From: Cladosporium halotolerans
Lineage: Eukaryota
Length of the DNA stretch: 64,000 nt
Assembly: GCF_011745625.1 (NCBI RefSeq)
Contig: NW_027191464.1
Span: forward strand, 248,001-312,000
Reading direction: 5' to 3'
Shown here: positions 5,772 to 63,024 of the stretch, in pieces
Position numbering within the stretch: position 1 is the first letter of the stretch
Layout: each line of letters opens with the position of its first letter
Position numbers and translations under genes: made by a program
The notes under the pieces: model-generated
Told to the model about the DNA's origin: nothing
What the model saw: the letters and a program-made list of their open reading frames with translations, nothing else
Database searches by the model: none

Positions 5772-6781
5772 TCCTACCATCCTCACAGAGCGCACGACAT
5801 CATGCGCTGGTGTTTTTGGCGGCAACGGCGTGCGAGCTCGGGAGGACGCTTACCTGCGCCGGAAGCGCGATCGCCGGCTCAGCCCTAGTTCGCGATGGGC
5901 TGACATCTAGATGGGTGTCATCCACCTGCCCTACGAATGCACCCCGGCAATAGTATCTCTATGCCACCGCCAGCCTGCCGTCATCTAACACGTCGCCCTC
6001 GGCTTGGCGGCACGCCTGATGGCGCGCATACTGCAGTGTGTGTGTTCGCCCAAGTGCAACATCACTCGTAAAAGCAAGGCTTTTGTGAGATAAAAATCAT
6101 GTCTCCCGTTGACCGAGTCTCGTTCTCGACACTCCGGGCTTGTTGCACGGCGGGCTTGGCTTCTGCTAGCAGCAAGGCCTCCCACGTTAAGCTATCTCCT
6201 GTGCGGTCATACAGGTGCATCTTGTGTTGCACTTCACCGGTGATACTTTGCAAGCTGGTTACAGCTGGGAGACAACGTCGCTGGAATGATTCGGTTCCTA
6301 GGTATCTTGGGTACTGATATCATGCCTGTTCGCAACGTGCCAAGCGTCCATGGACGTCACGTTGTCGCTTTAGAAGACTAGAGCTACGGACAGCAATTCA
6401 TAACATCCCTTCTAAGATCTCAGCTGATCTTCTTGATCCAGCTCCTCGGCTTCGTACCAGTGCAGAAGCAACTCCGGCTTCCATCAGTCGTGCAACTATA
6501 TTACCAAATGTGATGACTACCGTTGGACACGTGATCATAGAGCAAAATCGTCCTCAGGTCTTCAAGTACAATCGATCGAAGAGCGGCCGTGAGAGATGTG
6601 CTCCATCAACTATGACTCGAGCAAGTGTGAGGAAAATATCGCCTCAGAACGTAGACTAAGTCGCCATCTCTCCACATATGCATATTACTATTAAACCGAG
6701 ATCTACAATGTAGGCCAGTCCCCAATGTCATTGGTCCAGGAGTGTCTCCCATTTCACACCACAGCTTCACGACACCCCAAT

Positions 6782-8329
6782 CTAGCTCGCGCTCTTCCCC
6801 CGTCTCCCATCCGTAATCTTCAGCAACCACTGCATGCAAAAGCTGGCCGTAATACTAGCCAACAACATAGCAATCATCACCCACATGCTCCCCAGATACA
6901 CCGGACTCCTGCTCGAATCCCCCTCCCAGCCCGAAAACAGCGCGTAGTTCGTCACCACACTCCCCAAGTTCCCCAACCCAGACACCAGCGCCGACGCCGC
7001 AGCAACGCCAATCTCGCCGTGCCGCGGCTGGAAAATCTCCGCCGTCCACGTCATGGCAATCGGCACCGTAGGCCCCAGCCCAAAACCCACAATCAGCAGC
7101 CCAACATACCTCCCCCATCTCTCCCCGCGCCCGTCCCCCGCGTACGTCGCGATCAGCAGGCCCGCAATCTGCAGCGCCGTCGGCACGCTGAACCACAGCG
7201 CGCGGTGCCGGTGGAAGTGGTCGCTGATGGGCGTGACGCACAGGATGCCGATGAGGTCGCAGATCCAGATCGGCGCGTACAGCAGGCTCAGCTCGACGCC
7301 CGTGAAGCCCGGGTTGATGGCGCGCAGGATCACGGTGCCGTACGACTGCACGCCGTTGCCCACGCCCACGACCCCGAAGTACATCACGAACAGCGGCCAG
7401 AAGCGCCAGTCCACCATGACGGCCCACAGGTCGCGCAGCGTCCAGTCCGCGCTGTGGTAGGCGCCGCTGAGGTCTTGGTAGTGCAGGATCGCGTCCTCGC
7501 CGGTCAGCGCGGGTTTGGTCTCGGGCAGGTGCTTGGTCAGGAAGTTCTTCTTGCGCTGCTCGCCCGGCGCGAGCGGGCGGTCCGGCAGCCACCAGACGAG
7601 CACGAAGCCGAGCACGAGCGTGACGAGGCCCCAGATCAGGAACATCCACTGGAAGCCGACGAGCCCGCCGTCGCCGTCCATCTCCTGGAAGCCCGCGCTG
7701 ACGAGCCCGACGACGGCGGCGGAGACCTGCGAGGCGGTGAAGTACCACCCGATGCGCTTCGCCATGCGGTGCGGCGGGTAGAACATGGTCAGGAAGAGCG
7801 ACATGCCGGGCCACATGCCGGCCTCGACGGCGCCGAGGAGCAGGCGGAGCACGTAGTAGCCGGCGGCGTTCTGCATGCCGACCATGGCGGTGCCGATGAC
7901 GCCGACGCTGATGACGATGCGCGCGAGCCAGACGGAGGGCGAGAGCTTGCTCATGGCGAGGTTCGAGGGGACTTCGAGCACGACGTAGGAGACGTAGAAG
8001 AGCGCCAGGCCGGTCGAGACTTGGTGCGCGGAGAGGTTGAGGCGGGTTCCGAGGTCGTGGCCTTCCTGCGTGTTCATGGTTTGCGCGAGGCCGACGTTGG
8101 AGCGCACGGCGGAGCAGAGGAAGTAGAGGAGCCAGAAGGGAGGGATGATCCGGAGGTCGAGTTTGCGGTACACGCGCTTCGTGCGAGAGGAGTCCATGGG
8201 GCCTTCGAGCGAGACGTGGCGGCCCTCATCTTCGTCGTATTGAGCTTCTTTGTGTTGGTCGTCGTGTTGGGCGGCCCATCGATGGGCATCGACACCCGTG
8301 GCGATGTCTGATTCCGCCATTAATGCCAC
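6782..8329 (-). CDS. MFS transporter, anion:cation symporter (Dal5/Tna1-like) family, single exon, 515 aa
   Basis: KLDLRIIP, FYVSYVVLEVPSN, RLLLGAVEAG, GFQWMFLIWG, WLPDRP motifs; about 12 hydrophobic segments; high GC3. Confidence 0.93.
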   Translation of the reverse strand: MALMAESDIATGVDAHRWAAQHDDQHKEAQYDEDEGRHVSLEGPMDSSRTKRVYRKLDLRIIPPFWLLYFLCSAVRSNVGLAQTMNTQEGHDLGTRLNLSAHQVSTGLALFYVSYVVLEVPSNLAMSKLSPSVWLARIVISVGVIGTAMVGMQNAAGYYVLRLLLGAVEAGMWPGMSLFLTMFYPPHRMAKRIGWYFTASQVSAAVVGLVSAGFQEMDGDGGLVGFQWMFLIWGLVTLVLGFVLVWWLPDRPLAPGEQRKKNFLTKHLPETKPALTGEDAILHYQDLSGAYHSADWTLRDLWAVMVDWRFWPLFVMYFGVVGVGNGVQSYGTVILRAINPGFTGVELSLLYAPIWICDLIGILCVTPISDHFHRHRALWFSVPTALQIAGLLIATYAGDGRGERWGRYVGLLIVGFGLGPTVPIAMTWTAEIFQPRHGEIGVAAASALVSGLGNLGSVVTNYALFSGWEGDSSRSPVYLGSMWVMIAMLLASITASFCMQWLLKITDGRRGKSAS

Positions 8330-11239: not shown

Positions 11240-11256
11240 TTGAGTGCAGTGTGCGC

Positions 11257-23420: not shown

Positions 23421-24797
23421 TCAGAATCTGGCCTCGACCTTGTCGTGCACATCTCCCAGCGCCCATTCGTTCCGCGCCCTCTTCGACCTGACAGCGTCCA
23501 CCTGCGCTCGGGTGAAGCCCTTCGCCTCGACAGCAGGGTTGTAACCCAGTCCGTTCCTCCTACCAACATCCGCGGAGCTAACAGGCTCACTCGCCTTACC
23601 GTCAGCTCGCTTGTAAACACTCACTACAACCGCGCCCCCCAGCCCAAGGTTGTGCTGCAGCGCCGCCGTAGTCCCCTTGACGAGTCTGTTGTTCGCCCAG
23701 CCACGCAAATGCCAGACCAGCTCTGCACACTGCGCGATACCACTCGCGCCGAGCGGGTGGCCTTTGCTGATCAAGCCGCCGGACGGGTTGACGACCATGC
23801 GGCCGCCGTAGGTGATGTCGCCGGCGCGCACCATCTCGTGCGCCTTGCCCTTCTCGCTCAGCCCCAGCGCGTCGATAACGATCATCTCGTTCGCACTGAA
23901 GCAGTCGTGCACCTCAGCAACCTTCACATCCTTCACATTAACCTGCGCCTCCGCCAGTGCAGCCTTCGCGGCCTGCTCGTTCATGCCGTATCCCATCAGA
24001 TCAATGGCCGACCGCGAGAAGACACTCTCCGTGTCGGTCGCCAGCACCTGACCAGCAATCAACACCGCCTGCTCCTTAAGATGCGGACGGGCGTCAAGGA
24101 ACTCCTGCGAAACGAGCACCGCCGCCGCTCCTCCATCGCTCGTAGGGCAGCACTGCAGCTTCGTCAGGGGCTCGTGGATCATCGGCGACTTCATCACCTG
24201 CTCAAGCGAGTACTCGTCCTGGAACTGCGAGTACGGGTTCCTCTTCGAATGCTCATGATTGACGCGCGCGATCTCCGCGAAATCCTCATTCCTCGCCCCG
24301 TACTTCTCCATGTACTCCCTGCCCGCGTTGCCAAACATCTGCGCCGCGCCCGGCGCGTTCGTGACGCCCCGCGTAGCCTTCATCATCTCGCCAAAGGTCC
24401 CCGTCGGGTTCGCGCGGTCCTGGAAGTACGACTGCAGGCTGCCGGGGTTCATCTTCTCGAAGCCGACGACGAGGACGGCGTCCGCCTGGCCGCCGGCGAT
24501 CATGTTGCGGCCGAGGTAGAGGCCCGTGCTGCCCGTCGAGCAGTTGTTGTTGACGTTCCAGATCGGGATGCTGGTCTGCCCGAACTGGTAGAAGACGCGC
24601 TGGCCGCAGGTGCTGTCGCCGTAGCAGTAGCAGGCGACGCCCATGTCCATGTCGTCGTAGTTGACTTGCGCGTCGAGCATCGCTTTGACGCCCGCTTCGA
24701 AGCCCAGCTCCGTGTAGTCGACTTTGCCGCGCGGTTTGATGAATTTGGTCATGCCGACGCCGAGGACGTAGACGGGGGCTTTTTGTTTGGGGGCCAT
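23421..24797 (-). CDS. SCP-x type thiolase (non-specific lipid-transfer protein/sterol carrier thiolase), 458 aa
   Basis: VLGVGMTKF, NVNNNCSTGSTG, CCPTSDGGAA, EVHDCF, NPSGGLISKGHPLGASG, LQHNLGLGG. Confidence 0.95.
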   Translation of the reverse strand: MAPKQKAPVYVLGVGMTKFIKPRGKVDYTELGFEAGVKAMLDAQVNYDDMDMGVACYCYGDSTCGQRVFYQFGQTSIPIWNVNNNCSTGSTGLYLGRNMIAGGQADAVLVVGFEKMNPGSLQSYFQDRANPTGTFGEMMKATRGVTNAPGAAQMFGNAGREYMEKYGARNEDFAEIARVNHEHSKRNPYSQFQDEYSLEQVMKSPMIHEPLTKLQCCPTSDGGAAAVLVSQEFLDARPHLKEQAVLIAGQVLATDTESVFSRSAIDLMGYGMNEQAAKAALAEAQVNVKDVKVAEVHDCFSANEMIVIDALGLSEKGKAHEMVRAGDITYGGRMVVNPSGGLISKGHPLGASGIAQCAELVWHLRGWANNRLVKGTTAALQHNLGLGGAVVVSVYKRADGKASEPVSSADVGRRNGLGYNPAVEAKGFTRAQVDAVRSKRARNEWALGDVHDKVEARF

Positions 24798-25415
24798 GGT
24801 TGCAGGATGTGAGGGGTCGGTTGGTGGGTTTGCTTTGAGATTTGGCCGATTGAATGGTTCCTGGCTGTTCGGCCCTGATTCTTGTTTTTTATTTTATTTA
24901 ATCTGGCAGTGATGGATGCCTCTTGAGTGGCGAGTGATCGATTGATGTACTGTGTGGAGTGAGAGCGCATATCCGGGGTTAATAAGCTCAGGACTGCGGG
25001 GATATGGATACCTCGCTGTACCCGCAAGCGAACGTGAGGCGAGGGTCAGACGGACCGAGGCATCTTCTGTCGGGAATACTTTGGGCTTACTTCGTCTCAT
25101 GACTTTTCAATAATCAGCCAGCGAACATTCGACTATGAACCGGGCACCATCGAGGGTGCCTTCGAAGCTTGAGACTGACGAAAGACTCTCGGGAAGAGTT
25201 ACGAGGAAGGCCCATTGATCCGCATGCACGCTTGTGAACGATTATGGTTCAAGGAGTGCACCTGTACTGCCGTTACATCTCATTGGATTCTATAGGGGTG
25301 AGCACATTCTTCGTTCGTTAAACCGCGCAAAAGAAAAGGGAAAAGGTTCCTTGTTTTGAAGGGAAGAGGGTGAGAGGAAGCAAAAGGATATCTCTCAATC
25401 GGAGAGATGTTCTGT

Positions 25416-29855: not shown

Positions 29856-30338
29856 GGGAGTAATGTCTTCCAAAGCGAAAAAGAAGGAGGTGCTAGAGGA
29901 TTTGCATTTTGACATTTTGTCTGCGTTTCAGCGAGCGGGCATGTGGTGGCGTTTCTATTTGATTCTGCGCTGGGCGTGGAACCCAGCGGCACCACTGCGG
30001 ACATCATGTCCTGAAGAAAAGCAATTTTGCGGGTTTGGCGAGCGAGCGTGTATTGATTATCATGGGCTTGCTGGCATCGGATACCTATTTGATACACCAC
30101 TCGGTTTCTTTCGGTTTTTGAGATTGAGCGGCAAAAACGTCCCTCGGCCATATACACGAAAAGAAAATACATGGAATAAATTTAGTTCATTAACATCATG
30201 CCTGGCTGTTCAGACATATTCCTCCAATGCCCAACAGATCCACACTTTAAATGTCTCGGGAAAACGGTTTAGACTTGCATATCCAAAATGAAGGTGGAAC
30301 TGATCGACTCTTACGCGTGAAGCAATCCACCTGTTCCA

Positions 30339-30579
30339 CTACGCCCCATAAGGCCTAGAGAACACCAACCCCACCATCCGTCTGCCTCACACTCCCAATC
30401 ATCCAGTCATTCTCAAACCCTCGCAACGCCCACCGGCGACACGAACCGCCCAGCAGGATACTGACTCACAGTGCATCAAAGTTCTTCGCCCACCCATGCT
30501 CCCCCTCATCCAGCGCCTCCTTCTGCTTAACAAGATTCTCAACGACAAGAGCGACTTTCGACACAACGAAGGGCCACAT
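30339..30579 (-). CDS. Candidate 50-aa microprotein; exons 30579-30470, 30381-30339
   Basis: AAAATCAAC-ATG context and a strong GTGAGT donor; spliced product MWPFVVSKVALVVENLVKQKEALDEGEHGWAKNFDALRMVGLVFSRPYGA*. The branch site is weak and no homology is recognised. Confidence 0.35.
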
Positions 30580-31272
30580 GTTGATTTTAGGAGATAGATT
30601 ATGATGAGGAGCAATTGAATACGAGGCATTCTGCTGGAATTACCTTTGCATGTTCAAACAAGCCTTTTACGTATGTCCCGGAGCTGGGAGAGAATTCAGA
30701 GCTGAAAGCTGAGGCCTATGCGGCTGAGACTGTGTGGAATGAGATTATACATTATGAGGGAGGTCCACTTCGCCTCAATAAACACTAGGAAGCTCCTGAT
30801 TAATGGGAGGTGCTCGAGGCTTCCAGTTCGGGGTTGACCGCAGGCCGGAGAAGGCCTCGTAGGTTGGGATACAATAGAGGACGGAGGGTTCATCGAAACT
30901 CAATGATTTCACGCGCGAATCGAACATAATTGGCATATGCATATGCGACGACTCTGTGTTTTATTTGAAGTGAAGTCGGCACGAGACGTTTGCTCGGCGA
31001 AGCGAAACAGGCGTGACGTTGGTGGGGCTTTCGAACAGCCCCTCCATTCTTCGGAGGCATCGCAGCGGAGGGCAGCCAGATGACTGTGCAAGAGAAATTG
31101 AATCTTCACACAGAATCACACACCACCACTACCACCTCTCAGTCTCGTCGCCTTTGTCTCTCTTAATCTCACAGTCGCATACTACTAGAGTAAAATCAAT
31201 CCTACAATCGCCGCGCCTCATCGCGCACACGTCGCAATCGCAAGAGCCGCACACCATCGGCAGCGAAACATT

Positions 31273-42629: not shown

Positions 42630-43380
42630 TCTTCCCGGCGGATGCGACTAAAAGCTAGAAAATGCGAGGTTCAAAGCGATCAACCGTCTCCTTAGGAATT
42701 CAATGGTGCACAGGTGGATAACAAGCGTGGACTTGAAGGTAAAGGTGGCATTGTGGCTGAGATCCAACCGCAAGCGCGATGTTACTTGAAGCAAAACGAC
42801 TTACGTCATCAGCCACCATCCAAATGGCCGTCGTTGTCGTATTGCATTGCAATTGCCATGCATGCGTTTCCGGAACCTCTCAGCGCATGATGCTCCATCG
42901 TATTCTCGAATGAGGACGTCCAATGGCGCCATGGCGTCTTAGATATCGAGAAAAATGTACACGGCCGCTTCGTATTAGTGACCCGGCGAATCCAGCCAGA
43001 TGCATATGCATCTTCGAGAAGCCGGGCAGATCGCTATGCATTTCGTCGGCTCAGGCTGGCGAGCTGCTGCGACCGTACATGTTTCGAGGGTAAGCGGCTT
43101 TGGTCGACAGTATAGGACAATCCAAACGCGGATCTTGCTCTCCGTGCACTTCACCCCATCGGACAGACCGACTCGGCGAATCGCAAGTAGCTATCGCAAG
43201 GACCTTCCTTCGCCGTGCAATTTACCAGGAGAGGGCAAGCCATGTCTTTCATAGATCCCTCGTCCGGAGAGTACCATCTTCGAGAGCCTTCTCCGCCAGA
43301 ACCTCTGTTCCGGAATCTCGATCCGAGGACGTCGCAAGACCTCACTCCAGCCTTATTAACTTCCCAGAAAACCTCCCACC

Positions 43381-43836
43381 TCACCTCCCCGACCTCCCCG
43401 CCCTCAAAGCCCTAACCCTCTCCTCCTCTTCACTCCTCACCCTCTCCTTCCCCTCCCCATCCGCACCCTCCTCCCTCTCCCTCCTCCCAAAAATCTGCCC
43501 CGCCAACTCCCCCACCGTCCCCCTCTCGCCCTCCCTCCCTTTCACAAGCCCATGCCGTCTCCTACTCTCCTCCAGCAAACTCAGCCCCCCACCACCAGTA
43601 TCCTTCTCCCTGTACCGCCGCGCGTTCTCCTTCGCGGCCCGGATGCTCGTCGAGGTGTAGACGAAGAGGATGCAGGCCATTGTGAAGGCCGCAGCGGGGG
43701 CGATGATGGTGCGGGAGTTGAAGGGCCTGCGTTTGGCGAGGGGGTGCGCGGGAGTGGGAGGGGGAGGGGCGGAGGGCGGGTGCGAGGATTCGGTCGTGCC
43801 GGCTGGGCCGCGGGGTTGGGAGAGGCGGGCGCCCAT
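43381..43836 (-). CDS. Small single-TM hypothetical protein, 151 aa
   Basis: ATCAAAA-ATG-G context; core IIAPAAAFTMACILFVYTSTSIRAAKENA...DTGG resembles a conserved ascomycete hypothetical family. Confidence 0.75.
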   Translation of the reverse strand: MGARLSQPRGPAGTTESSHPPSAPPPPTPAHPLAKRRPFNSRTIIAPAAAFTMACILFVYTSTSIRAAKENARRYREKDTGGGGLSLLEESRRRHGLVKGREGERGTVGELAGQIFGRREREEGADGEGKERVRSEEEERVRALRAGRSGR

Positions 43837-44603
43837 TTTTGATTTTTTTTTGTGTGTGAGGGGCTTTGTGGATTGGTTGTTGGAAGGTTTGGTCGAGAAG
43901 GTCGGTTTGAAGTGGGTTTGCGGTTGTGGGAGTGTTTGTTTGGGAGCTGGAGCTCGAGTGATGGGAGCTTTGGAGCTTTGGCGCGAGTGACTTCATCGTC
44001 TGGGGATTTGGTTCGGTGGGCTAGAAGTGCACCTAGATCGACCGAGGGATGACTACGACTATTCGAAGATTATCGAGCCTACTCCCAAAATTGTCGGGTA
44101 GTTTTAAAGCCAACGTAACCGCTCATGAAAGAGCAACATCTAGGGCAAAGTAGAGTCACGTCAAAGCTCCAGCATCAAAGGCATCGCTTCAGCTTGAGAT
44201 TAACGAAAGTACAACGATTGCCATCCGGCCAAGTAACCCAAGAATAGAATTGAGCGATCAGCCTCCATGTATCTACAATGCTCGAAAGATTCAGCGCCCA
44301 GACATCCTATCTCAAAACCGACCTGAACTCCAAGCCCTATAACTCCATCGCCCAGCCATCACGACACGCTGAGAATTAGCCCTTTTCGGGCACAGCAAAT
44401 CACAATCCCTTCGTCAGACGCACGCCCTGTGATCGCTGCCACATAGGGACTCTCCAGAAGCGACGTCCACTCTCCGCCGTGAAGCAAGGAAAGAGACTGA
44501 AAGACCAGAGGAGAGAAAAGGAAAGAGACGACAAAAGCGATCTATGAGGGAAAAAATACAAAGAGCCGAAGGGCGCAGATGAGAATTAGTTTCGGCGCTC
44601 TTT

Positions 44604-46083
<1,480 letters not shown>

Positions 46084-47559: not shown

Positions 47560-47605
47560 AGCAATGTCCGCTCCGACCCTCGACGTATAGGGTAGTGGGA
47601 GACCA

Positions 47606-51700: not shown

Positions 51701-52715
51701 CCAAAGCATCCCAAAAACCCAAAAACCAACTTGACCAACCTACAATCTCCGCAAATGGTTCAGGAACTCATCGAATACGCCCCTCGAAATGCAACACGCC
51801 AAACAGTACACATCCAAACCTCCCAATAATCCATCTAGCGTGCCTCGGCCTCCCCAGGTACCATGAGGTGAGGCAAAGATAGACAAACCAGCTTCCCCTC
51901 CCCATCACGCCCGTCACGTGCCTCGCATCACTCACGTACAAAACCTACACATAGCCCCGCGACACACAGACCGCAGCGAACGAGTAACACTCAGAAAACC
52001 TCAACTGACCGTCTATCACACGATCTCATTCTCATTGCCTCATCATACCTACCCAGCAACTTACCCACCTACCAACCCCATCCCTTCCAGCCCCAGCGTC
52101 CCACTCAAAACCGAACGATCAAAGTGAGAGAAGACCTACAAACAACTACACATAGAGAGGAAGACTTGACTTATTATTCATTCTATGCACGCATGGTTAC
52201 TTCAAGAAGAAAAAGAAAACAATGATTAAAAAGAGAAAGGACCAGAACCAGAACCAGAGAGACACGTTCCCCATTTTACCCGATTCCCATTTGGCTAAAA
52301 ACAAATAGCAAGAAGACGCAGTACAAGTGGAGCGAGCACGAAGCAGCAGCAGTGCTTATCAATCAATCGAGAGTAGTGAAAGAGTTGAAGACCAGAAAAG
52401 AATCCATTGGTGGGAGTGACTTGTGATAGTAGAGAGAGATGGATTATGATAAGAGGGAAAGACGAGAGCCAGCCGGGGACGCGCGGGTCCGGCAGCGAGA
52501 GAGAAGTGCAGCATTCGGCCCCGCGCCCTCGCGGGGGAGGGGAGCGGGGAGGGGATGTGTGTTATTAACGTCGTCGCATCACGACTAATCTTCCACCGTG
52601 TCGTGCGTGGCGGGCTTCAAATCCCGCGCTGAGTAACCGAGATGCGACTGCGCGCCCTCGTGCCGTGCTTGTCCCATGTTTGAAAGCAAAAGTGACCATT
52701 TGGGGGTCAAATTGC

Positions 52716-54054
52716 TTAGAGAAGGCCGAAGAGGACGGCGACGACACCGAGGATGCCGGTGGCGCCGGTGATCTTGAGGGTGCTGGCGGCGCTGTCGGAG
52801 CCGCCGTTGCCACCGTTGCTGCCGCTGCCAGCGTTGCCGGTGCTGGTGCCCTCAGGCTTGTCAGAGCCCTGGCCCTCGGGGTCCTCCTCCTCACCGCGGC
52901 AAGTGAAAGAACCCTTGATGACGGAGTTGTCCTTGTACTGCTGGAACTCAGAGCAGGCCTCGTCGAGGTTCTGGTTGGACTGGAGGTTGAAGGCACCACG
53001 GACGTCGTTGAGCTTGGGGAAGTCGGCGCTGAAAATGCTGTTAGACGATTGCGCGGTATTGGAGAGAACGGGCGAGAAAACTTACGTGTCAATGGCATCA
53101 CCGTACATGTCGAGGGCACCACCAACGGTCTCGAGCTCGGGGAAGGCGCTAACGTCGGCGAGCTTGGTGTTGTTCTGGATGGACAGACCGCCACCGACAG
53201 TGGTGAGCTGGGGGAAGGAGATGTTGGTAACGGCCTCGTTGCCGGAGATGGCGAGAGTGGCACCGACGTCAGTCAGGTTGGGGAGACGGAGGCTCTCGAA
53301 GAAGTTGCTGCCGAAGAGAAGGGAGTTGTTGACGGAGGCGAGCGAGGGCATGCTGATGGTAGAGGCGTTGTTGATCTCAATGGACTTGCCCCACTGCAGG
53401 TTGGGGAAGGTGGCGGAGACGTTGCGGCCGTTGGCGTAGATCCTGAGGGACTCGCTGACATTGCCGAGCTGCATGGTGATATCGTCGAGGTAGCCGTTGT
53501 TCTGGATGTTGATCTCGTCGGCGACCTGGAGGTCAATGCCCTCGAGGGAGCTCAGGTAGGTGTTGACGATGGAGACGACACCAGCCTTCTGGACCTTGTT
53601 GGTGAAGGAGAGGCCCTGAAGACCGGGCAGACCCTCCCACTCGATCTGGTCAACCTCGTTGAGCTGGGGGAAGTTGAGGTTGGAGAGAATCTCGCAGGTC
53701 ATCAGGCTGAAGGAACCACCGATGCGCTCGAGGCTGTCAGCGGAGATGGAGGTGATCTCGGAGACGTTGTTGGCGACAAGGTCGCCGGTGATGGCACGGA
53801 CGCCATTGAGCTGGATGTTGTCGGTGGTGCCGGTGGCAATGGCGACGCTGCCAGAGAAGGTGGTGCAGGCGGCGAGGCCAGAGGCGTCACCCTGGTTCTG
53901 GATGGTGGTGGTGGCGGCGCTGCAAGACTGAGCTGGGGAGCTGTCAGCGAGCTGCTCTTGGACGGAGCTTTTCGCGTGGTGTCCGCGTGTTTCTGCTCTT
54001 ACCTGCCACACGGCCAGCGACGGCCACAACGGGCGCGAGGTACTTGAAGGACAT
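52716..54054 (-). CDS. ECM33: GPI-anchored cell wall protein Ecm33 (receptor L-domain repeats); exons 54054-54003, 53932-53086, 53028-52716
   Basis: Signal peptide MSFKYLAPVVAVAGRVAA, CTTFSGSV, repeated (F/L)PxLxxVGG units, ANGRN, DVRGAFNLQS, Ser/Gly stalk, hydrophobic GPI tail (GILGVVAVLFGLL*). Confidence 0.95.
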
Positions 54055-54079
54055 TTTTGAAATTACGGGTCGTGGATAA

Positions 54080-54290
54080 CTGTTGGGAGCTGTCAGAGCG
54101 GGTTCGTTGAGGAGGTGCGGCAGCTTCGGAGGTGGAATAGGGGCGGATTTCGAGCGAGGCGGCGGGCGATGGAGGCGGTGATGCGAGGGCGTTTGGCGTG
54201 CTTGTTGCAAGTGACGATGGAGATGCGGCGCTCGATTGACGCGTGTTTGTGGTGCGGTGACTGTCGTCCCGGCGGGCGGCGGATACTGAC
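54080..54290 (-). other. Probable 5'-UTR intron of ECM33 (211 nt)
   Basis: CAG|GTCAGT donor at 54290; CTGAC branch and CCCAACAG acceptor ending at 54080, 25 nt before the ATG. Confidence 0.65.
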
Positions 54291-57200
54291 CTGGGTATAG
54301 TAAAGCTGCTGCGCGAGACTGGCGACTCGGTGGATAGCCAATGGATGGTCTTCAAGGGCGCGGGCGGGGTGTGAACGAAGGGAGCACAGCGAGTGTAGGA
54401 GCCAGAGGCAGTCGAGTATGTGCGGAGTGAAGAAGAGAAGAGGAAGCAAACACCAAGCCAAGGTAAGGTACGGGAGCGAGAGAAGGTGCACGACGGGCGA
54501 GCGTGGCTGCTACAGGAACGGGGGCAGCTTTTGGGGAGGAGGCCGGGAAAGAAGGGGCGAGGGTTGGGCCGGTGCATTGGCCGCCGCGCGTCGTGCCCGA
54601 CACCCGGCTAGTGCGCGCGCGCTAGGCCTCAGTCATCCTGGCCGCGCTGCTCCAACGGCCTGAGGTGCGCGGTGCGAGTGCCCACCACAATCGAGGCTCA
54701 CACGGCTCGTCACTCGCCAACACCACCATTCTCCGGAGGCAGATGCGCTGCCAGTCTCCACCCTCCCGTGCATGGCCCTCACGCACACGCCCGCTGAAAC
54801 GGCGCAGGTCACCGAGCCCATGCTGCCACGGGAGCCGCGCGATCGCTGGTAGCGCTGCGCCAGTGGCGGCCTGCCGCTCCCTCTGCATGTGTTACAGGCC
54901 TGCGTGTGTACAGTATAACGAACGATGCAGTCGGCCCGCTCGTCGCCAGAACGACTCGCCTGGGCACGGCATGGCAGTGGCGAATGCCATGCTGGATGCG
55001 CCGCGGAGAGCTGCAGCTAGGAAGTACTACGAGCTGGTCTCCCACGACGCTCGACCACCTGCACATGAGGTAGCCCCAAGCAACACAGTAACCACCATCA
55101 AGACAACATTCAACACCACGTCCGTCCGCAAATTGACGCCTCGCTCGTCCCACGCCGCCAGATTTGATTGACGGACCGCACTGACTGCGCGATCAGCCAG
55201 CAGCCACTCACGCGCCGCGCTGCCTCGCGGCTCGCCCCAAACAGGCATGATGAGGTACACGATCGCAGAGCCGCGGTCGAATCAAGCCGCGCCGGCGTGG
55301 CCCAGCCGAAACGCCGTCGAAGACCGTCTCTCTGCAATCACCTCCCCTGCAGCCACCGAGCCACCCAATCTCGCATGGCCCATCTACTCGAATCCCATCA
55401 TCATGCTCCTCTAATCCCAGCGTGTCAATCATCTGCCGCTTATCAACTCGCCCACGCCCTCCCTCGAGTCACTAATCATCCAAGCACGCCCCTCCCCGCG
55501 TCGCAATAATCTCGCCTGTCGTTCATCATAAGCTCCGCCATGCATTGTCCTCAACCCCACGCCGCAGCCAGCGCGATGGGGCGCCCAGCAGGAATTGTCG
55601 GGGTGGCAAGGTGGAGCTTCGCCAAACTCTCTTTCGCTTTCTGTTGATAGATCTTCGTCTGTTGTGTCTGCGAATAATTACAAGCCCACGGACGGCTCCG
55701 ACGCACCCTCCAGCACCAGGCGGCCTGCCTGCCTTAACCCTAACCAATGCCCGCCAGCGTCTCTTTGATGATCTGCACGCGACACAGCAATAATCCTGCC
55801 CGCCCGCCTGCGTCGCACGCGCGGACGGCCAACACTGGCACGAAGGCTTGAAGCCGAAACTCGATGTCTCGCAGCAATTCGCCTAAAGCTTGCCGCTCCA
55901 TGGCATGTGCCCAGCGAGCTTGAGCACCGTCGAGTCTCCATCCCCATGCCGTTCCCGACGAGCCAAAAATGTCCGCTCCGACGAGTGTGCAGATCGCGAT
56001 TATGCTCGCCACCGAGTCCCGCGCGGCGTTGGCGAACTCTCACGGCTGAGCAGAGCGAGAGACAGACAGTCGCGCCGGCCGTCAAAGCTTGACTCGTTCG
56101 TTTCACAGCGCTACCGCGGCCGTGCCGGCCAACGGCCACCCCCGAGCGGCCGCGCGGAAAAGCGAGCGAGGTGATGATGGGCGCCGGCTTTTTTGCTCCT
56201 CTGATCAACTGTGGGGTGGGGACTTCTGCTGCGAGCTGCTGCAGCGCCGTTTTGTCCGTCAGTCCGCCCGCGATAAGGTAAACAAACATCCGCTTGCGGG
56301 CGTGGACAGGCCTCGTGTGAAGGTCGCTCGTCGCTTGCTACCTCACAACACTGCTATCGCTCACCATTGGGGCGCCTGCCCAGGACAGCTATAGCTACAG
56401 CTCGCAGCTCCCGCAGCACAAGAGCTCCCCCAACCCACCCACCCAGCTCGGCATTTGGCTTCGCCTCGATCTCGTATCGGCCCAGTACGTACCGCCCGGC
56501 GCCCGGCAGTGCAGTCTAGGAGAACGAAGCCGAGCGCTGCGATTGTAGCACGCCAGTCGTAGAGAGCGTGTGGCAACTGGCGTCACAAGCAAAAAGAAGA
56601 AGGCATGTCCAATCTGCACGCCGAGCCAGCCAGCCGGGCCTTTTTAGTCATTATAGCCGTTTCCTGCCAGGCTGCTCGCGCGGCTTGCGGGACTTGATTA
56701 GAGTTCTTCTACGCCAGCTTCCAGCAGGAATCGGGAGGGCGGATTCCTTGCTTTGCTGTACTGTGCATACAGGTGTGACGTGGCATTGGCGGGTGGCGGC
56801 GCTCCTTTATTTGTCAATGTTAATGCATGTCGGCTAAGCAGGATGGCGAATCTTGAGTTTGGGGTTGGCTTGGTTGTTGGTGATGGGTGAGGTCCTTGGT
56901 ACCGGTACTGGAGTTGCTTGCTGGTGGATCGAGATACCTGCAGGGTGTCTGGCCTGATACAGTACTTTGTCGTGAGTGCTCGTGCTCAGCTGTCACGCGA
57001 CAGATGGCATTCTTTGTTGGAGTGCTGTCACGTGGCTGTCAGCAAGGAGTACGTCGTGTTGTCTTTCTCTGCGTGGCGGACAGAATCTAAGCGAGGTGTA
57101 GTTGTCTTTCGGGCGAGCCACGAGATGGATGAATTCCCTCAGGAAGCCGTGAAGAGTACACAAAACACTCGCTAATTCATGTAATTGTTGTTGGAAATGC

Positions 57201-57386
57201 CCATTCTCAGCATAGCTACATATGGAGCCGATGCGCAAAGATCCTGAAAATCACCATCTTGCCGCAAAGACGCCCATGTCTTTTGCCCAATGCCATCCCA
57301 AATTCCACCGCCCAACCCCTCGCGTCCAATCAGCGTCCCGCAATCCCATCCAACCTCACTTCTACTTGCACCCAATTATACACAAG

Positions 57387-58558
57387 ATGCCACCCCGTCT
57401 CCGGCCGCATTTACGGCCTAGCAAACCATCATGGCAGTCCACGATCATCTCAATAAGATGGTCCAGCACATCTGCAAAAGCCCATGAGCCCCTCCGCATC
57501 CTCTTCTGCGGCGCCGACGCCTTCAGCATCCCCTCCCTCCACGCCCTCCACAACCTCCACAAACGCCGCCCAGACAAAATCGCCAGCATCGACGTCGTCT
57601 GCAAACCCGACGCCCGCGTCGGCCGCGGCCTCAAACAAATCCAAGAAGGTACGCAAGCCCCCCTCCCACCACCACCAACAGCAGCGCCACCCAGCTCTCC
57701 CAAACCCAATATAACCCATAAATCTGACTAACTCCAAAAACAAAAGTCCCCATAAAATCCCACGCCGCCGCCCTCTCCCTCCCCCTCCACCAACTCCCCA
57801 CCTTCACCCGCTGGACGCCCCCCACCCCGCCAAACCTCATCATAACCGTCTCCTTCGGCCTCCTCGTGCCATCGCGCCTCCTCTCCGCTGCAACCTACGG
57901 CGGCCTGAACCTCCACCCCTCCCTGCTCCCGGACCTCCGCGGGCCCGCGCCGCTCCAGCACGCTCTGCTGAAGAGGAGGCGGAGCACGGGCGTCAGTCTG
58001 CAGACGATGCACCCGACGGAGTTCGATCGGGGGGTTGTGCTGGCGCGGTCGGGGAGGGTGGGGATTCCTGCTGACGCGCGCTGGCAGGGACTTTTGGAGA
58101 CGCTGGCGCCGTTGGGGGCGGAGGTGCTGGTTAGGGGGCTGGAGGAGGGGGTGTTTGTGCCGCCTTTGGTGGGGTTGGGGGCCGAGGACGTGGATGGAGG
58201 GGAGCTGGCGCATGCGCCGAAGATCACGCCGGAGAATCGGAGGGTGCTGTGGGGGGTTTGGGGCGCGGAGGAGGTGGTGCTGAGGGATAGGGTGCTTGGG
58301 AGGTTGTGGGTGGGGAGTTTGGAGGGGAGGACGGGGAGGGCGGTGTTTGCGGGGCCGTGGAGGGTTGTGGAGGGTGAGGTGGGAGGGGTGGAGGCTGGGA
58401 GGGCGGTCTTGGTTCCTGGTGTTGGGGGTGTGGGGGAGGAGGTTGGGTTTGGGACTGCGGATGGGAAGGTTGTGGTCCCTGCTGGGATTACGATTGATGG
58501 TGGGAAAAAGGGGCAGGGAGGGAGAGTGGTGATCGAGATGCTGAAGGGGAAGAGGTAG
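57387..58558 (+). CDS. FMT1: Mitochondrial methionyl-tRNA formyltransferase; exons 57387-57648, 57747-58558
   Basis: Arg-rich presequence, PLRILFCGADAFS, GRGLKQIQE-VPIK, VSFGLLVP, GLNLHPSLLPDLRGPAP, TGVSLQTMHPTEFDRG, HAPKI; intron GTACGC...CTAAC...AAG. Confidence 0.93.
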
Positions 58559-58912
58559 GGCTTGAGGTTGTGAAGCGGCTGTAACAATATCGGAGATTGT
58601 AAGAATAGAGGTCGGTTTGAGCTAGATGGTGGTCTGCCATGCCACTGTGCTATGAAATGTATCATTAGAGAAGCACCAGTATTTCCGACAGCAGTAAGCC
58701 AATTCATGCCATGCAGTTCACTCGTCCCATCCTACAAAAGAGTATACATAAAGGACATTCAAAAAGCCAGCGCTCGCGATCCTCGCGCGCAAGCAAGGAG
58801 GGGTATCGTGCGCCATGCCACAGTAACAACAAAAATAAATGAGAGTCCCAGCCTTCGCCGTCACAACAATCCCACACCCTCTACCCTCTATCCCACCACA
58901 AACAAGACCCAC

Positions 58913-61132
58913 TCACAACCCAATCCTAACAACCCAATCATAAATCCCCAAGAAAACCCACCTCCTCAGCCCCTGCACCCTCCACACCACCGTCCCCAGC
59001 ACCACCAACACAACCGTCGCCGCCATCGTCCACAGCAACCCAACCGGCACCTCCCTCTCCCGCCCTTCTTCGGGCATCAGCTCTGGACTCTCCGAAATCC
59101 GAAAACTGCTCCCGCCGAACAAGTCCTCCAGCCCCGTCGCCTGCGCCGCCGCGTCGGCCGGCAAGTGCCACGCCGAGGGCCGCAGGTCGAGGTTCCCGCG
59201 CGTGCGGGCAGCCGCGGGGGAGAAATCGGAGTGGACGGAGTGCGCGTCGTCGTCGTCGGCGGCGGCGGCGAGGCGCGCGGAGCGCCGGCGGCTGGGCGTG
59301 CTGGGGTCTGTGGCTGTGGCTGTGGAGCGGGAGTTGGTTCGGTTGAACGGCTTGCCCTTGTCGATGCCCGCGCGCATCTGCTCGAGGAAGTTCTTCTGCT
59401 GCGTGACGGGCGGCTCTTTGAAGCTCGGCACCTGGCTGACGGGGTTGCGCAGGCGGCGCTCCATGCTCATGGGGGCCTGGGGCAGGCGGCCGCGGAAGGG
59501 GTTTTGCTCGGCGGGCGGGTTGTAAGCCAGTTTCGCGGCGTTCTGGGCGGCGATCAATTTCGAGCGCTCCGTCTGCGCGCGCATGTCGTCTTCGATGCTG
59601 AACAGGTTGCTGCGCATGTCTTCCCAGCCTTTGGGCGAGGGCGCACCGAAGCGGCGGGAGGCGGCGGGGGCTTCGCGGGGTTGGCGGCCGGTGGCGGTCG
59701 CGGCGTAGGGGTTGTAGGTGCGGGTGTCGGGGGCGCCGGGCATGCGGGATTGCGGTTGCGCGGGGGAAGTGAAGTCGAGGTCCATGGGGTCTTCGACTGT
59801 CGAGTCGGAGCCCTGCGGTGAGGGCGGTGGGCCGCCGGATTGGCGGGTGTAGATGTGGGATCCGTAGGTGGAGCGCTGGGGTGCGAGGGAGCTGATGGGG
59901 AAGGGCTCTTTGTGCTTTTTGGCGTGGATGTCGAAGGGGAGTTTGGTGGAGGCTTGCGGCGTGTGTTTCTCCATCGCCGGACCGGCGTACTGGCCTAGGA
60001 CGTCCTGGTCCTCGGGCTTCGGCATCATCTTGTTGTTCAGCCGCCACTTGTGGATCTGTATCGAGCGCCTGCTGAGCCATTGCCCGCCCAAAATCACCGC
60101 AATCGTCGCGCAGTGAACCGCCACGATCTGCGACCATTTCATCTGACTGAGTCGCGACTCGTCCGAAAGCCCCAGATACGCTCCCGTCCTGACCGCCGTA
60201 ACCATAAACTGAATCCAGAAGTGCTGCGTCTGCCCCGTAATCCGATCGTAGCGCACCATCGGGTTGTAGTACGCCCTCAAACCGTGGTTATACCAGATCA
60301 AACACAGATTCACCAACAGCATAGCCGGAACCCAAGCGCCCAGCAAATCCCAACAACCACTCTCAACCCTCCCCCTCCCCAACCCCGCCAAACACCCCCT
60401 CACCGTCGCCTGCACCGCCTCCTCCTCTTCCTCCCCAAAAACCAACCCCTCCCCTCCCCGCAACCCCCTCCCAAAAACCCCCTCCCTCACACCCCCCAAA
60501 TGCCACCCAACCTGCCCCACCACACACCCCCACCTCACCGCCCCCAACGCCCCCAGCAGAACCCTCATCCCCCTCTTCCCCCACCCATCCCTCCCCTGCT
60601 CAACCCCCCTCCCACGACCCCCCCTCCTCCTCCTCTCCCGCAAATGCGCCTTGTTCAAATTATCCGTGACGCTGAAGTAATCCGCGCGGTTGATCCGCGC
60701 CTGCGCCTTGGGCGCGCACGCCGTGCAGATCTGCGGGTAGCGCTTCTCGAGCGCGGCGCGCCAGGCGGGCAGGGCGCGCTCGTAGGCGGCGTAGGAAGGG
60801 TGCGTCTCGGGCGGCAGGTAGTTGGCCAGCGAGGAGGTGTAGACGGCTTGGTTGTGCTGGCAGGTGGAGCAGAAGATTTGCTGCTGGTCTGAGGAGGTGG
60901 AGGCGCTAGGGGGAGCTTGCCGGGATGAGGGGGGCGAGGAGGTGCTGGAGGTGGTGGTGTCGTGCGGCGTGTCGAGGATGTGGCCGGCGGCGTCGAGGTG
61001 GTTGATTGCTTCGCAGGAGGGGCATTGGAAGGAGGGCGGCGGGGCGGAGAGTTTGGCGTGCGGCGAGCGGGCGCCGCAGAAGTGGCAGGCGATGCGGGTG
61101 AAGGGGAGGAGGGTGGTGAGGAGCGCGGCCAT
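58913..61132 (-). CDS. ima1: Inner nuclear membrane protein Ima1 (Ima1_N zinc-binding domain + TM helices), 739 aa
   Basis: CHFCG...CPSCEAIN, IFCSTCQHNQ...NYLP...LEKRYPQICTAC; central TM segments; TGLEDLF...F and a C-terminal TM. Confidence 0.88.
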   Translation of the reverse strand: MAALLTTLLPFTRIACHFCGARSPHAKLSAPPPSFQCPSCEAINHLDAAGHILDTPHDTTTSSTSSPPSSRQAPPSASTSSDQQQIFCSTCQHNQAVYTSSLANYLPPETHPSYAAYERALPAWRAALEKRYPQICTACAPKAQARINRADYFSVTDNLNKAHLRERRRRGGRGRGVEQGRDGWGKRGMRVLLGALGAVRWGCVVGQVGWHLGGVREGVFGRGLRGGEGLVFGEEEEEAVQATVRGCLAGLGRGRVESGCWDLLGAWVPAMLLVNLCLIWYNHGLRAYYNPMVRYDRITGQTQHFWIQFMVTAVRTGAYLGLSDESRLSQMKWSQIVAVHCATIAVILGGQWLSRRSIQIHKWRLNNKMMPKPEDQDVLGQYAGPAMEKHTPQASTKLPFDIHAKKHKEPFPISSLAPQRSTYGSHIYTRQSGGPPPSPQGSDSTVEDPMDLDFTSPAQPQSRMPGAPDTRTYNPYAATATGRQPREAPAASRRFGAPSPKGWEDMRSNLFSIEDDMRAQTERSKLIAAQNAAKLAYNPPAEQNPFRGRLPQAPMSMERRLRNPVSQVPSFKEPPVTQQKNFLEQMRAGIDKGKPFNRTNSRSTATATDPSTPSRRRSARLAAAADDDDAHSVHSDFSPAAARTRGNLDLRPSAWHLPADAAAQATGLEDLFGGSSFRISESPELMPEEGREREVPVGLLWTMAATVVLVVLGTVVWRVQGLRRWVFLGIYDWVVRIGL

Positions 61133-61962
61133 TTGCGCTGCGCGGATGGCGGTCGTGGTTGGTTTTGGGTTGTTGCCAGGCTGTGGGTTGATTGTTTGGT
61201 GGTTCGTTTTGGTGTTAAAGTATTTGTCGTAGACGAGAAGAGACAGCGTGTTGATTAGCGCCGGCGTGGTGCGAGTGGATTATTGCGCGAGTTGGATGCA
61301 TGCGACGAAGCGGTTTCTTTGTTGATCGGCGCTGGAAATAGCGGCGTTTTGAGTCGAGTTTCAGGGTCGGCTGCTGCTTGCAGCCTCAGGCACAATGAGG
61401 AAGTGAAGGCAGGCAGCCGTGAAATTCAAGGTAACCTCAACCCTCAATGCAACCTTCACTGGTCTCGTTTGCGCACTTGAATGACGATGCTCTACCTAGC
61501 AGTGAATTCAAGAAAAACCAGTGTCTTCGACACGCACTTGTGAATCTCAATCATACTCGCCGAGGCCAAATCCAAAGCCTTCAAGCAGTTCCAATATTTC
61601 ATTCAAAGGCAATCCTGTATCGCCATTCACTACTGTAACAATCTTAGAGGTAGCCAGCAGACTCCCGGCTGGATGCAACCCAATCATGACATCAACGCCT
61701 TTCCCAAAAACAATCGCCTGTCCGTGACCCAACCGAAAAAGCCTGCCTCTAGCACAGAGCAGATCCGAGCCCGTCCGTCCAATGCAATCCCCAGTTCCCA
61801 ATTCACAGAGTCCACCAGCGCCGACGCTGAAAAGACGATTCTCACGATAACAACGAAAGCGCAATTTTCTTCCAATCCACCCGTTAATTCGGCGGCTTCT
61901 CTTGGCCGCTCGCGTAAACTCAAAGCTCCATGAAAGAGCTGACTGCTTTCCTTCCGGATTAA

Positions 61963-63024
61963 TCATCCAAGGTACCCCATCGTCTCGCCCTCCCGAACAG
62001 GCGGCGACATGGGCCCACACTCCATGACCGAAACCTCCGACTCGCGCGCGTCCTGTTTCGTCGCGCGGCCGCCGTCCGCCAGCACAGCCGGGTCGAGCGA
62101 GCTGCCGGAGAGATCGACGCCGCTGTCGGGCTTGCTGACGTCGGACCTCAGGCTGGCGTTCGAGGGCGCGAGGCCGTCCGTGGAGCCGAGGATGCGGACG
62201 AACTTGTCGACGTCCAGCAGGCCGGAGTGCAGCAGGGACGTCAGGGAGGGCCGGCGCTCGAACTGCGCGTGCAGGCGGGCGTGCGAGAGCAGGTGCTCGG
62301 GCTGGAAGACGCGCGTGATGAAGTCGAGGTCGCCGGCGCGGGCTTTGGGGTTCGCGTAGGCTTCGTATTCTGCGACGATGGCTTCGATGGGCCAGCCTTG
62401 GACTTTGCGCATGCAGGCGATGACGCAGCCGGTGCGGTGGCGGCCTTGGTTGCAGTGGATGTAGAGCGGGTAGTTTGCAGCGTCGAGGACGACGAGGAGC
62501 GCGTCGCAGATGGAGGCGACGGTCGTTTTGACTTTGCCTTCTTTGTTGGGGGAGATGTCGATGCGGAGGCGGGCGACGTTTTTGGCGCGCACGAAGGCCG
62601 CGTAGCCGTCGCTGGGCTCCGTGTCGACGAAGCAGAGCAGGGTCTTGACTTCGAGCGCGTCCAGGAAGTCCATGTTACGGTCTTGCGGGAACGCCGAGCG
62701 GAAGACCTTGTGGTCTGTGACTGCGCCGAAGTTGGGCGGGGGGATGAAGGGTTGCAAGCGGATTGGGTAGTCGAGGGATGGCGAGTCGGGCCGCGTGGGC
62801 GGCGAAGGCGGTCTTGACTTGATGTTTCCGAGGTCCTTGAAACCGTCCGGTGTCGATTCTTCTGTCATCGGCGCAAGCAGCCCGTCTTCTGCGGACCCTG
62901 CAATCCCCGTCGTCGCGCCGTCCTCCGCGTCGGTCATGATCACATCGTCTTGCGATGGTGTATCAACGGCGATCTCGATATGTGAAGCATTCTGCATGCT
63001 CTTGAACTCTGCCGACGAAGCCAT
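61963..63024 (-). CDS. Siw14/Oca-like (PFA-DSP) tyrosine/inositol-pyrophosphate phosphatase, 353 aa
   Basis: PPPNFGAV, VFRSAFP, NYPLYIHCNQGRHRTGCVIACMRKVQGW, EYEAYANPKARAGD. Confidence 0.88.
   Translation of the reverse strand: MASSAEFKSMQNASHIEIAVDTPSQDDVIMTDAEDGATTGIAGSAEDGLLAPMTEESTPDGFKDLGNIKSRPPSPPTRPDSPSLDYPIRLQPFIPPPNFGAVTDHKVFRSAFPQDRNMDFLDALEVKTLLCFVDTEPSDGYAAFVRAKNVARLRIDISPNKEGKVKTTVASICDALLVVLDAANYPLYIHCNQGRHRTGCVIACMRKVQGWPIEAIVAEYEAYANPKARAGDLDFITRVFQPEHLLSHARLHAQFERRPSLTSLLHSGLLDVDKFVRILGSTDGLAPSNASLRSDVSKPDSGVDLSGSSLDPAVLADGGRATKQDARESEVSVMECGPMSPPVREGETMGYLG

Follow-up and report, generated by a model that had tools for sequence, protein, structure and literature searches.

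Strand-skew islands in 64 kb of the Cladosporium halotolerans genome as a probable extreme form of the GC skew within fungal genes

We analyzed a stretch of 64,000 nucleotides from Cladosporium halotolerans (contig NW_027191464.1, positions 248,001 to 312,000; hereafter the window), in which an earlier note on the sequence had described about ten islands whose + strand is first rich in C and A and then rich in G and T. With a probability of roughly 0.8, each island corresponds to a protein-coding gene or to its final ~1 kb, in keeping with a known fungal pattern, and not an autonomous element, a replication origin or a hotspot. On the sense strand, the 5′ untranslated region (UTR) and the upstream coding sequence (CDS) are C-rich with A exceeding T, the composition flips within ~100 nt to G-rich with T exceeding A at 200–600 nt before the stop codon, and the skew is back to neutral within ~100 nt after the stop codon. 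At the same strength, we regard the islands as an extreme-amplitude case of the opposite GC skew within fungal genes described in 2011 by McLean and Tirosh (BMC Genomics, PMC3315797). The kind of cause is most likely a strand-specific mutation or repair process. The analysis covered this one window, where some gene models are approximate, and 15 metagenome loci.

Skew islands and their position in genes

The window contained 57.7% G+C and exhibited no overall skew. In all nine listed pairs of arms, the + strand was strongly skewed in opposite directions, with GC skews of −0.25 to −0.78 in the left arms and +0.25 to +0.63 in the right arms. The AT skew in the arms was mostly opposite in sign to the GC skew, and the GC content of the arms was 0.50–0.69 versus 0.58 for the window. 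The pair at 24230–24900 was a weak island, and so was the tenth place near 62200, which was weak but real (GC skews of −0.31 over 61600–62000 and +0.29 over 62200–62800). A 200-nt skew profile of the window gave the same blocks, and the letters of 57200–61300 contained runs of several hundred bases nearly without G, followed by runs nearly without C.

Switches were defined as GC-skew steps of at least 0.7 between adjoining 250-nt half-windows, and each shuffle control was run in 50 trials. The window contained eight C-to-G and three G-to-C switches. The corresponding values were 0 and 0 for mononucleotide shuffles, 0.34 and 0.22 for shuffles of 50-nt blocks, and 1.6 and 1.8 for shuffles of 100-nt blocks. 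Codons were also shuffled within genes. In 10 of the 11 genes tested, no more than 18 of 1000 such shuffles matched the largest C-to-G step of the sense strand, and in six of these ten none did; the test was not significant for the remaining gene, BRO1 (140 of 1000). The islands claimed by the earlier note therefore stand above both the sequence shuffles and the codon-shuffled genes.

The "CG-rich core" attributed to the islands was borne out in part. The CpG density was higher in the cores than in the arms (8.7–18.7 versus 3.3–13.5 per 100 nt), because C and G are both present there; the CpG observed/expected ratio was ~1 throughout (cores, 0.85–1.50; arms, 0.78–1.54), and the core is mostly a by-product of composition. 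Hairpins or inverted-repeat elements were rejected, as the arms match in composition without sequence complementarity: when the left arm was aligned locally with the reverse-complemented right arm, the score lay within 2.1 standard deviations of shuffles in seven of nine islands, and the other two (z = 3.2 and 4.4) were both of low complexity. The predicted RNA fold energies of three islands were −286, −361 and −356 kcal/mol, compared with −272±5, −352±8 and −362±8 kcal/mol for within-arm shuffles, and the predicted pairs were mostly arm-to-arm, as dictated by composition alone.

We scanned 294 stop-to-stop open reading frames (ORFs) of at least 90 amino acids against Pfam and used unstranded contigs from two public runs as RNA evidence. 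The Pfam matches were ordinary genes of filamentous ascomycetes on both strands. All 10 islands lay inside genes backed by Pfam, homologues or RNA contigs. The supported gene spans make up 46% of the window and contained all eight strong C-to-G switches, which, as the earlier note had stated, fall in exons. The three strong G-to-C switches were all outside genes, two of them in spacers between convergent gene pairs.

The position of the skew relative to the stop codon was determined in 13 genes, chosen regardless of skew, whose frame was supported by Pfam and whose stop was unambiguous. Genes whose 3′ exon or stop was unclear (C2H2 zinc-finger, DSPc, APH, Fungal_trans and Anp1) were excluded, as were two small genes found by eye; an Ecm33/Sps2-like gene was handled separately. 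In all 13 genes, the sense strand was G-skewed over the 100 nt that precede the stop; the count was 12 of 13 both from −200 to −100 nt and over the first 100 nt past the stop. The mean sense GC skew was −0.23 at −800 nt, +0.42 at −100 nt and −0.05 beyond +100 nt. At the 5′ end, 9 of 10 genes were C-skewed over the 100 nt upstream of the start (mean −0.35), and 8 of 10 over the first 100 nt of the CDS; three of these start coordinates are approximate. In 7 of 11 genes, the largest C-to-G step within the gene lay 250–590 nt ahead of the stop. The arms were 250–760 nt long and ended 20–100 nt from stop codons.

A C/A-then-G/T order is unchanged by reverse complementation, and a gene-anchored pattern consequently looks alike for + and − genes. 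The earlier note had taken the common polarity in + and − genes as independence from genes and had written that the pattern ignores gene orientation; a rule on the sense strand predicts exactly this polarity, and the pattern is reverse-complement symmetric and anchored on gene ends. The note had also named beforehand, as a refutation of its view, a polarity that tracks only the distance to gene ends, which is what the 13 stop-anchored genes exhibited. Its exclusion of a uniform transcription-strand bias was upheld.

Synonymous sites, introns, proteins and orthologues

The GC skew was greatest at third codon positions. Four-fold sites were tested separately because the third base of two-fold codons depends on the amino acid. 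In 11 pooled genes, these sites comprised 666 C, 347 G, 59 T and 65 A between −900 and −300 nt from the stop (skew −0.31) and 139 C, 323 G, 116 T and 17 A in the last 300 nt (skew +0.40). From the upstream part to the 3′ arm, C thus fell from 59% to 23%, and G and T rose from 31% to 54% and from 5% to 19%, respectively. The four-fold skew rose toward the stop by at least 0.35 in 9 of 11 genes, rose marginally in the thiolase-like gene (+0.29 to +0.33) and was unchanged in PyrRedox, and in the last 300 nt it was positive in 8 of 11 genes. The AT skew changed sign together with the GC skew at third-position and four-fold sites.

Introns and 5′UTRs shared the skew of the arm that surrounds them. 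The intron of the gene for mitochondrial methionyl-tRNA formyltransferase (FMT) contained 9 G and 42 C (GC skew −0.65), a 211-nt RNA-supported intron (g52_c) had a GC skew of −0.43, and the intron of a small predicted gene at 30.4 kb had a GC skew of +0.52. In two other strains, ~70–75 nt, and so most, of the FMT intron were replaced by unlike letters that were again C/A-rich, with 1 G versus 20 C in one strain and 1 G versus 16 C in the other. The skew therefore persists at synonymous and intronic sites, where the earlier note had proposed to look for it, and these results indicate that the force acts on the DNA or the primary transcript.

Protein change was counted at codon positions 1 and 2 wherever the residue of the window differed from a residue common to at least three of four relatives. 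In Ima1, 33 replacements were C-ward and 15 G-ward in the C-arm, and 7 were C-ward and 32 G-ward in the G-arm. In FMT, 17 were C-ward and 43 G-ward in the G-arm, and six were of each kind in the C-arm. The N-terminal part of Ima1 in the window was enriched in Pro, Thr, Ser, His and Leu compared with relatives, and residues ~160–290 in Gly, Val, Arg, Trp and Glu, where the relatives differ. The proteins thus follow the DNA composition through directional replacements in the arms, and the claim that coding sequence is overwritten is upheld by the G-arms of Ima1 and FMT and the C-arm of Ima1. In the G-rich arm of FMT (58200–58350), the window lacks ~16 residues with a high content of Lys, Gln, Asn and Asp, a segment found in all four relatives (L002, L004, L005 and L006); this segment would need A-rich codons.

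Orthologues were examined in the metagenome loci. All 15 loci contained Ima1 relatives, four also carried FMT and four the phosphatase gene, with the gene order conserved; a gene finder based on GC3 periodicity passed one extra long ORF in these loci. In eight distinct Ima1 relatives (62–65% and 36–41% protein identity), the third-position and four-fold skew was shaped like that of the window: it was negative at the 5′ end and positive at alignment columns ~150–300, then neutral or negative further along, and positive again at the 3′ end. The amplitude was lower in the relatives, and positions 1 and 2 were strongly skewed only in the species of the window. The FMT flip fell in the same alignment column at third and four-fold positions in four orthologous loci. 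The third-position identity of the relatives to the window was 46–57%, and this low identity indicates that the common skew shape reflects a continuing position-specific force and not shared ancestry of the bases. Orthologues at 36–65% protein identity thus keep the same synonymous-site sawtooth in place, including the internal cycle of Ima1, which is a new observation. The G+C content of Ima1 was 66% in the window versus 56–60% in relatives. Among the Cladosporium-like loci L001–L004, the third-position identity (52–68%) was too low to polarise substitutions.

Genes carrying the islands

The coordinates of the genes and spacers are summarized in Table 1.

Table 1. Genes, spacers and introns of the window that are discussed in the text.
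Feature	Position	Strand	Evidence
MFS transporter gene	ORF 6785–8329; stop 6782–6784; island 6750..8329	−	Pfam MFS_1, E 4e-28
Thiolase-like gene	ORF 23424–24797; island 23424..24900	−	Pfam Thiolase_N/C
Small predicted gene (found by eye)	30300..30900; ATG ~30582; intron 30355–30469	−	Sequence reading
Methionyl-tRNA synthetase (MetRS) gene	31273..33290	+	Pfam tRNA-synt_1g, E 4e-151
Spacer between convergent MetRS and Tri3-like genes	33208..33499	.	Sharp G-to-C return switch at 33407
Tri3-like acyltransferase gene	33455..35041; stop 33500–33502	−	Pfam Tri3, E 5e-8
GH3 beta-glucosidase gene	3′ ORF segments 37322–38653 and 38657–39508; stop 39509; island to 39560	+	Pfam Glyco_hydro_3, Glyco_hydro_3_C, Fn3-like
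Small conserved transmembrane-protein gene	CDS 43384–43836 (151 aa); island 43370..44020	−	ORF and homologues
Ecm33/Sps2-like cell-wall protein gene	52153..54577; stop 52718; poly(A) 52153	−	RNA contigs, poly-T loose end, Pfam Recep_L_domain
Ecm33-like gene, introns	53029–53085, 53933–54002, 54080–54290	−	RNA-supported
FMT gene	Island 57270..58580; ATG 57222 or 57387; stop 58556	+	Pfam Formyl_trans_N
FMT exons and intron	Exon 1 to 57648; intron 57649–57746 (GT..AG); exon 2 57747–58555	+	Sequence reading
Spacer between convergent FMT and Ima1 genes (both 3′UTRs)	58559..58912	.	G-to-C return switch at 58674
Ima1 gene, 3′ cycle	58860..59960; stop 58913–58915	−	Pfam Ima1_N, E 5e-34; full-length homologues of 700–745 aa
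Ima1 gene, 5′ cycle	60280..61240	−	Block coding in relatives (alignment)
Tyrosine-phosphatase-family gene (Yphos)	ORF 61966–63024; island 61600..63024	−	Pfam Y_phosphatase2, E 7e-40

On the sense strand, the MFS gene was C-rich in its 5′ part (8290–7850) and G-rich in its last ~355 nt (7140–6785); its third-position GC skew rose from −0.52 to +0.59, and the step was matched by 2 of 1000 codon shuffles. The thiolase-like gene had a C/A-rich 5′ end and 5′UTR and a mildly G-rich remainder (18 of 1000 shuffles). In MetRS, the C-arm (32380–32940) ended at a switch at 32939, which is 266 nt upstream of the stop at 33205, and the G-arm ran ~83 nt beyond the stop codon. The Tri3-like gene was neutral over the first 600 nt at its 5′ end, followed by a C-arm (34370–33810), a switch at 33732 (230–250 nt before the stop) and a G-arm to 33455. 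The C-arm of GH3 (38615–39200) switched at 39194, which is 315 nt upstream of the stop, and the G-arm extended ~50 nt past it; the third-position GC skew along the last exon was −0.85, −0.59 and then +0.37. The steps of MetRS, the Tri3-like gene and GH3 were matched by none of 1000 codon shuffles.

The same result (0 of 1000) was obtained for the small membrane-protein gene, where the island spans the whole gene with a C-rich 5′UTR and N-terminal half, a switch at 43634 and a G-rich C-terminal half (GC skews of −0.78 and +0.57). This single-pass protein matched no Pfam family and had 137 homologues in Dothideomycetes, the best with 99% identity; the homologue alignment gave the invariant core AAFTMA..LFVY..TSIRAAK.NA. 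FMT was C/A-rich in the 5′UTR, exon 1, the intron and early exon 2, switched at 57967 and was G/T-rich in the last 590 nt, with third-position GC skews of −0.40, then +0.81 and +0.90. In the spacer between FMT and Ima1, the skew was near 0 over 58581–58740.

Ima1 exhibited two cycles. In the 3′ cycle, the C-arm (59960–59200) was followed by a switch at 59117, 202 nt before the stop, and by a G-arm to 58860. In the 5′ cycle, the 5′UTR and the first 470 nt were C/A-rich (61240–60770), the switch was at 60666, and an internal G-rich block followed at 60645–60280 (codons ~160–290). This is the sole island whose G-arm ends away from a stop codon. The best homologue of Ima1 was 95% identical, the Cladosporium fusiforme protein 61%, and the farther matches belonged to other Capnodiales-type genera. 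Two metagenome homologues of this nuclear-membrane protein (P0007 and P0008) carry the source name "phage FluMu protein Com", presumably given in error because of the cysteine-rich, zinc-finger-like domain at the N-terminus. Yphos, a further weak island, had a C-rich body (62800–62200) and a G-rich last 100 nt and 3′ flank (62000–61600). One switch absent from the earlier list, at 30570, belonged to the small predicted gene, which has a C-rich 5′UTR and a G/T-rich CDS and intron.

The RNA contigs confirmed minus-strand introns in Anp1 and in the Ecm33-like gene. The latter is of the glycosylphosphatidylinositol (GPI) type, has a 563-nt 3′UTR and gave the deepest RNA contigs of the stretch.

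Shadow ORFs occurred on both strands in the regions 6725–8329, 23394–24812, 57728–58731 and 58652–61132. The + strand ORF 6725–8311 (528 aa) faces the real MFS gene (6782–8329, −), and the + strand ORF 58652–59821 (389 aa) faces Ima1. These ORFs are long because one strand of the arms has nearly no A, or the other nearly no T, which leaves several frames free of stops.

Two DNA runs of other strains, X2 and X8, differed from the window at ~850 places over 43001–63000. The divergence was mosaic: X2 differed at 4 places in ~8 kb (45416–53470) and at 54 in 1165 bases over FMT (57738–58902), and X8 differed by ~2% over 52148–57667 and by ~4% on either side. X8 had 4411 other letters between 46323 and 46694 and 208 others in place of 51872–52148. 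The contigs of other strains broke or diverged inside the extreme C-rich Ima1 block at 60361–60653, with an X2 contig gap at 60455–60653 and loose ends at 60380, 60435 and 60617; this block either assembles poorly or is highly variable.

Possible causes and known systems

The asymmetry is tied to the transcription unit, lies below the protein level and reverses its sign near the 3′ end. As to its cause, we place a mutational mechanism coupled to transcription at about even odds. It would be a substitution bias that is regional, strand-asymmetric and bound to the transcription unit, acting on the DNA or the nascent transcript and neither via protein function nor via the mature mRNA, and its sign would reverse near the 3′ end of the gene. 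The change in the 3′ arm amounts to a depletion of the amino bases (C and A) in the sense strand, with the mirror image in the upstream arm; one exposed strand would be damaged or less well repaired, and the exposed strand would change near the 3′ end. In this lineage, the bias would be strong enough to strip nearly all C, or G, from synonymous sites, pulling the amino acids along. Self-reinforcement seeded by amino-acid composition was considered and rejected, as the 5′ end of Ima1 in relatives had skews of +0.2 to +0.3 at positions 1 and 2 and of −0.8 at third positions.

Several observations weigh against the known fungal pattern or against its transcription-coupled mutational cause. The Ecm33-like gene, one of 14, was C-skewed on the sense strand up to the stop codon and had no G-arm. 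The four-fold skew in the last 300 nt was not G-ward in MetRS (0.00), PyrRedox (−0.20) and Yphos (−0.08). The internal second cycle of Ima1 is not accounted for by gene ends. Long genes had a neutral 5′ half, with the C-arm directly before the G-arm, so the profile looks anchored on the 3′ end rather than like a simple 5′-to-3′ gradient. The G-arm terminated near the stop codon and not at the poly(A) site, which is odd for a purely transcription-coupled mutation; the Ima1 3′UTR measured at least 173 nt (RNA contig 58740–58945). McLean and Tirosh found a flat AT skew, and in the window the AT skew flipped with the GC skew at four-fold sites; we treat this mismatch as a difference of degree, or a variant, which leaves the defining GC pattern unaffected. 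Finally, we infer both the choice of mutation over selection and the link to transcription.

A more specific possibility, which we hold only tentatively and think rather unlikely, is that the flip points are inherited features of each gene, that there are local transcription-linked determinants beyond gene ends, and that one lineage with a runaway amplitude rewrote conserved proteins. The determinants would be sites of internal or antisense initiation, or blocks prone to R-loops whose skew reinforces itself. If this were true, the species would be a natural choice of model for tracing what causes fungal gene skew.

Selection on the nascent transcript, which would keep the 5′ part G-poor and C-rich and the 3′ end C-poor and G-rich, is somewhat less likely still. 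Its possible reasons are the pacing of RNA polymerase II under limiting cytidine triphosphate (CTP), a hypothesis put forward by McLean and Tirosh (PMC3315797), or the avoidance of R-loops early and their promotion for termination late in the gene. The skew covers the pre-mRNA, including introns and the 5′UTR, it was kept in the FMT intron that was replaced between strains, and the synonymous-site pattern was held across orthologues whose sites are largely randomised, all of which would fit such selection; however, a persistent local mutation bias accounts equally well for the conserved position. The loss of all C or G at ~100 consecutive synonymous sites, together with many replacements, would need strong selection per site, and selection on the transcript predicts neither the internal Ima1 cycle nor a G-arm that ends at the stop codon. 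Furthermore, the correlation of skew with expression given in PMC3315797 is very weak (R of about 0.07–0.1).

Break or recombination hotspots in the nucleosome-free flanks of genes, with mirrored resection and with the G-to-C returns as centres, are improbable. Strand damage or biased mismatch correction at such a hotspot would leave the top strand G/T-rich to its left and C/A-rich to its right. Meiotic resection tracts are of the order of the 250–700 nt arm lengths, the islands are richer in GC than the window, and the strong G-to-C returns are intergenic in all three cases. From the 5′-to-3′ direction of resection, the polarity would fit only a break in the intergenic spacer; a break at the C-to-G centre was rejected, since the polarity would be opposite to that expected of resection. 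On the other hand, the C-arms of GH3, the Tri3-like gene and MetRS start in the middle of the gene without a mirror G/T arm, the 5′ ends of long genes are near neutral, and in several genes the skew peaks beside the internal flip and not beside the spacer.

The earlier note had read the islands as possible footprints of origin firing or of hotspots, a view that conflicts with about one island per gene and with arms that end near stops. Bidirectional origin firing at each C-to-G switch can practically be dismissed: the sign of the switch is that of bacterial origins, but there are ~10 switches in 56 kb, roughly one per gene, the eight strong ones all lie in genes, mostly 200–600 nt before the stop, the arms stop 20–100 nt from stop codons, and orthologues from other genera flip at the same codons. 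The search for a shared motif at switch centres, which the note had proposed, found none, as no k-mer (k = 5–7) common to the eight centres was above chance and the best ones were matched by 21–36% of shuffles. A cause at the protein level, with domains rich in Pro, Thr and Ser versus Gly, Val, Arg and Glu, is equally remote: the arms do encode these compositions, and some are ancestral (the Glu/Arg/Gly-rich C-terminal tail of the small membrane protein also occurs in relatives), but the third-position and four-fold skew exceeds that of positions 1 and 2, introns and the 5′UTR are skewed as well, and relatives are skewed at third positions and near neutral at positions 1 and 2.

The organism analyzed here shows the within-gene GC skew of fungi near its maximum, with exons and introns almost free of G and then almost free of C, sharp flips and rewritten conserved proteins. 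A mechanistic signal (strand-resolved mutation spectrum, antisense starts or RNA:DNA hybrids) should therefore be unusually visible in it. There is also a practical hazard, as stop-poor arms yield long false ORFs on both strands and break short-read assemblies; annotators should expect both.

In regards to other known systems, the repeat-induced point mutation (RIP) of ascomycetes is a strand-asymmetric C-to-T change. RIP makes repeats AT-rich, whereas the arms of the window are unique conserved genes with a GC content of 0.50–0.69 and a CpG observed/expected ratio of ~1. The skew at bacterial origins has the same top-strand sign, with C-excess followed by G-excess. It spans a whole replichore, whereas the switches of the window span hundreds of bases, occur once per gene, are anchored on stops and are conserved at orthologous codons.

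GC skew is also associated with R-loops in humans, at CpG-island promoters and at gene 3′ ends (Ginno et al. 2012, 2013, as cited in PMC4911931). It resembles that of the window in that the G/C strand asymmetry is tied to transcription units and that G-rich sense 3′ ends are linked to termination. The sense 5′ ends are G-rich in mammals, and those of the window are C-rich. A G-rich sense strand downstream of the transcription start, as in the R-loop type, was not found in the window, where the sense strand is C-rich at this position. PMC4911931, the only relevant paper found to cite McLean and Tirosh, also states that the skew of budding yeast is too small to relate to RNA:DNA hybrids.

The earlier note knew of no description of such a pattern at the sub-gene scale in fungi, but McLean and Tirosh (PMC3315797) had described one. 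Our full-text literature search found no later work on nuclear within-gene skew in fungi and nothing on Cladosporium. In the 2011 paper, almost all of ~60 fungi have C-biased sense 5′ ends and G-biased 3′ ends; the skew peaks at the stop codon, is seen at four-fold sites and in UTRs, and shifts amino-acid usage, and the AT skew is flat and positive along genes. For the cause, the paper weighs mutational regimes that are specific to the phases of RNA polymerase II against an adaptive explanation in which C is avoided under limiting CTP. Its species include the Dothideomycetes Pyrenophora and Stagonospora, and Cladosporium and other Capnodiales are absent from its data set. The window agrees with this pattern in its C-biased sense 5′ end and 5′UTR, in its G-biased sense 3′ end, and in a skew that also appears at degenerate sites, outside the CDS and in amino-acid usage. 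It differs from the gene averages of the 2011 paper in that single genes reach third-position skews of −0.85 and of +0.9 to +1.0 over 100 codons, in sharper flips of ~100 nt, and in the internal second cycle of Ima1. The conserved flip positions between orthologues shown here lie outside the scope of that paper.

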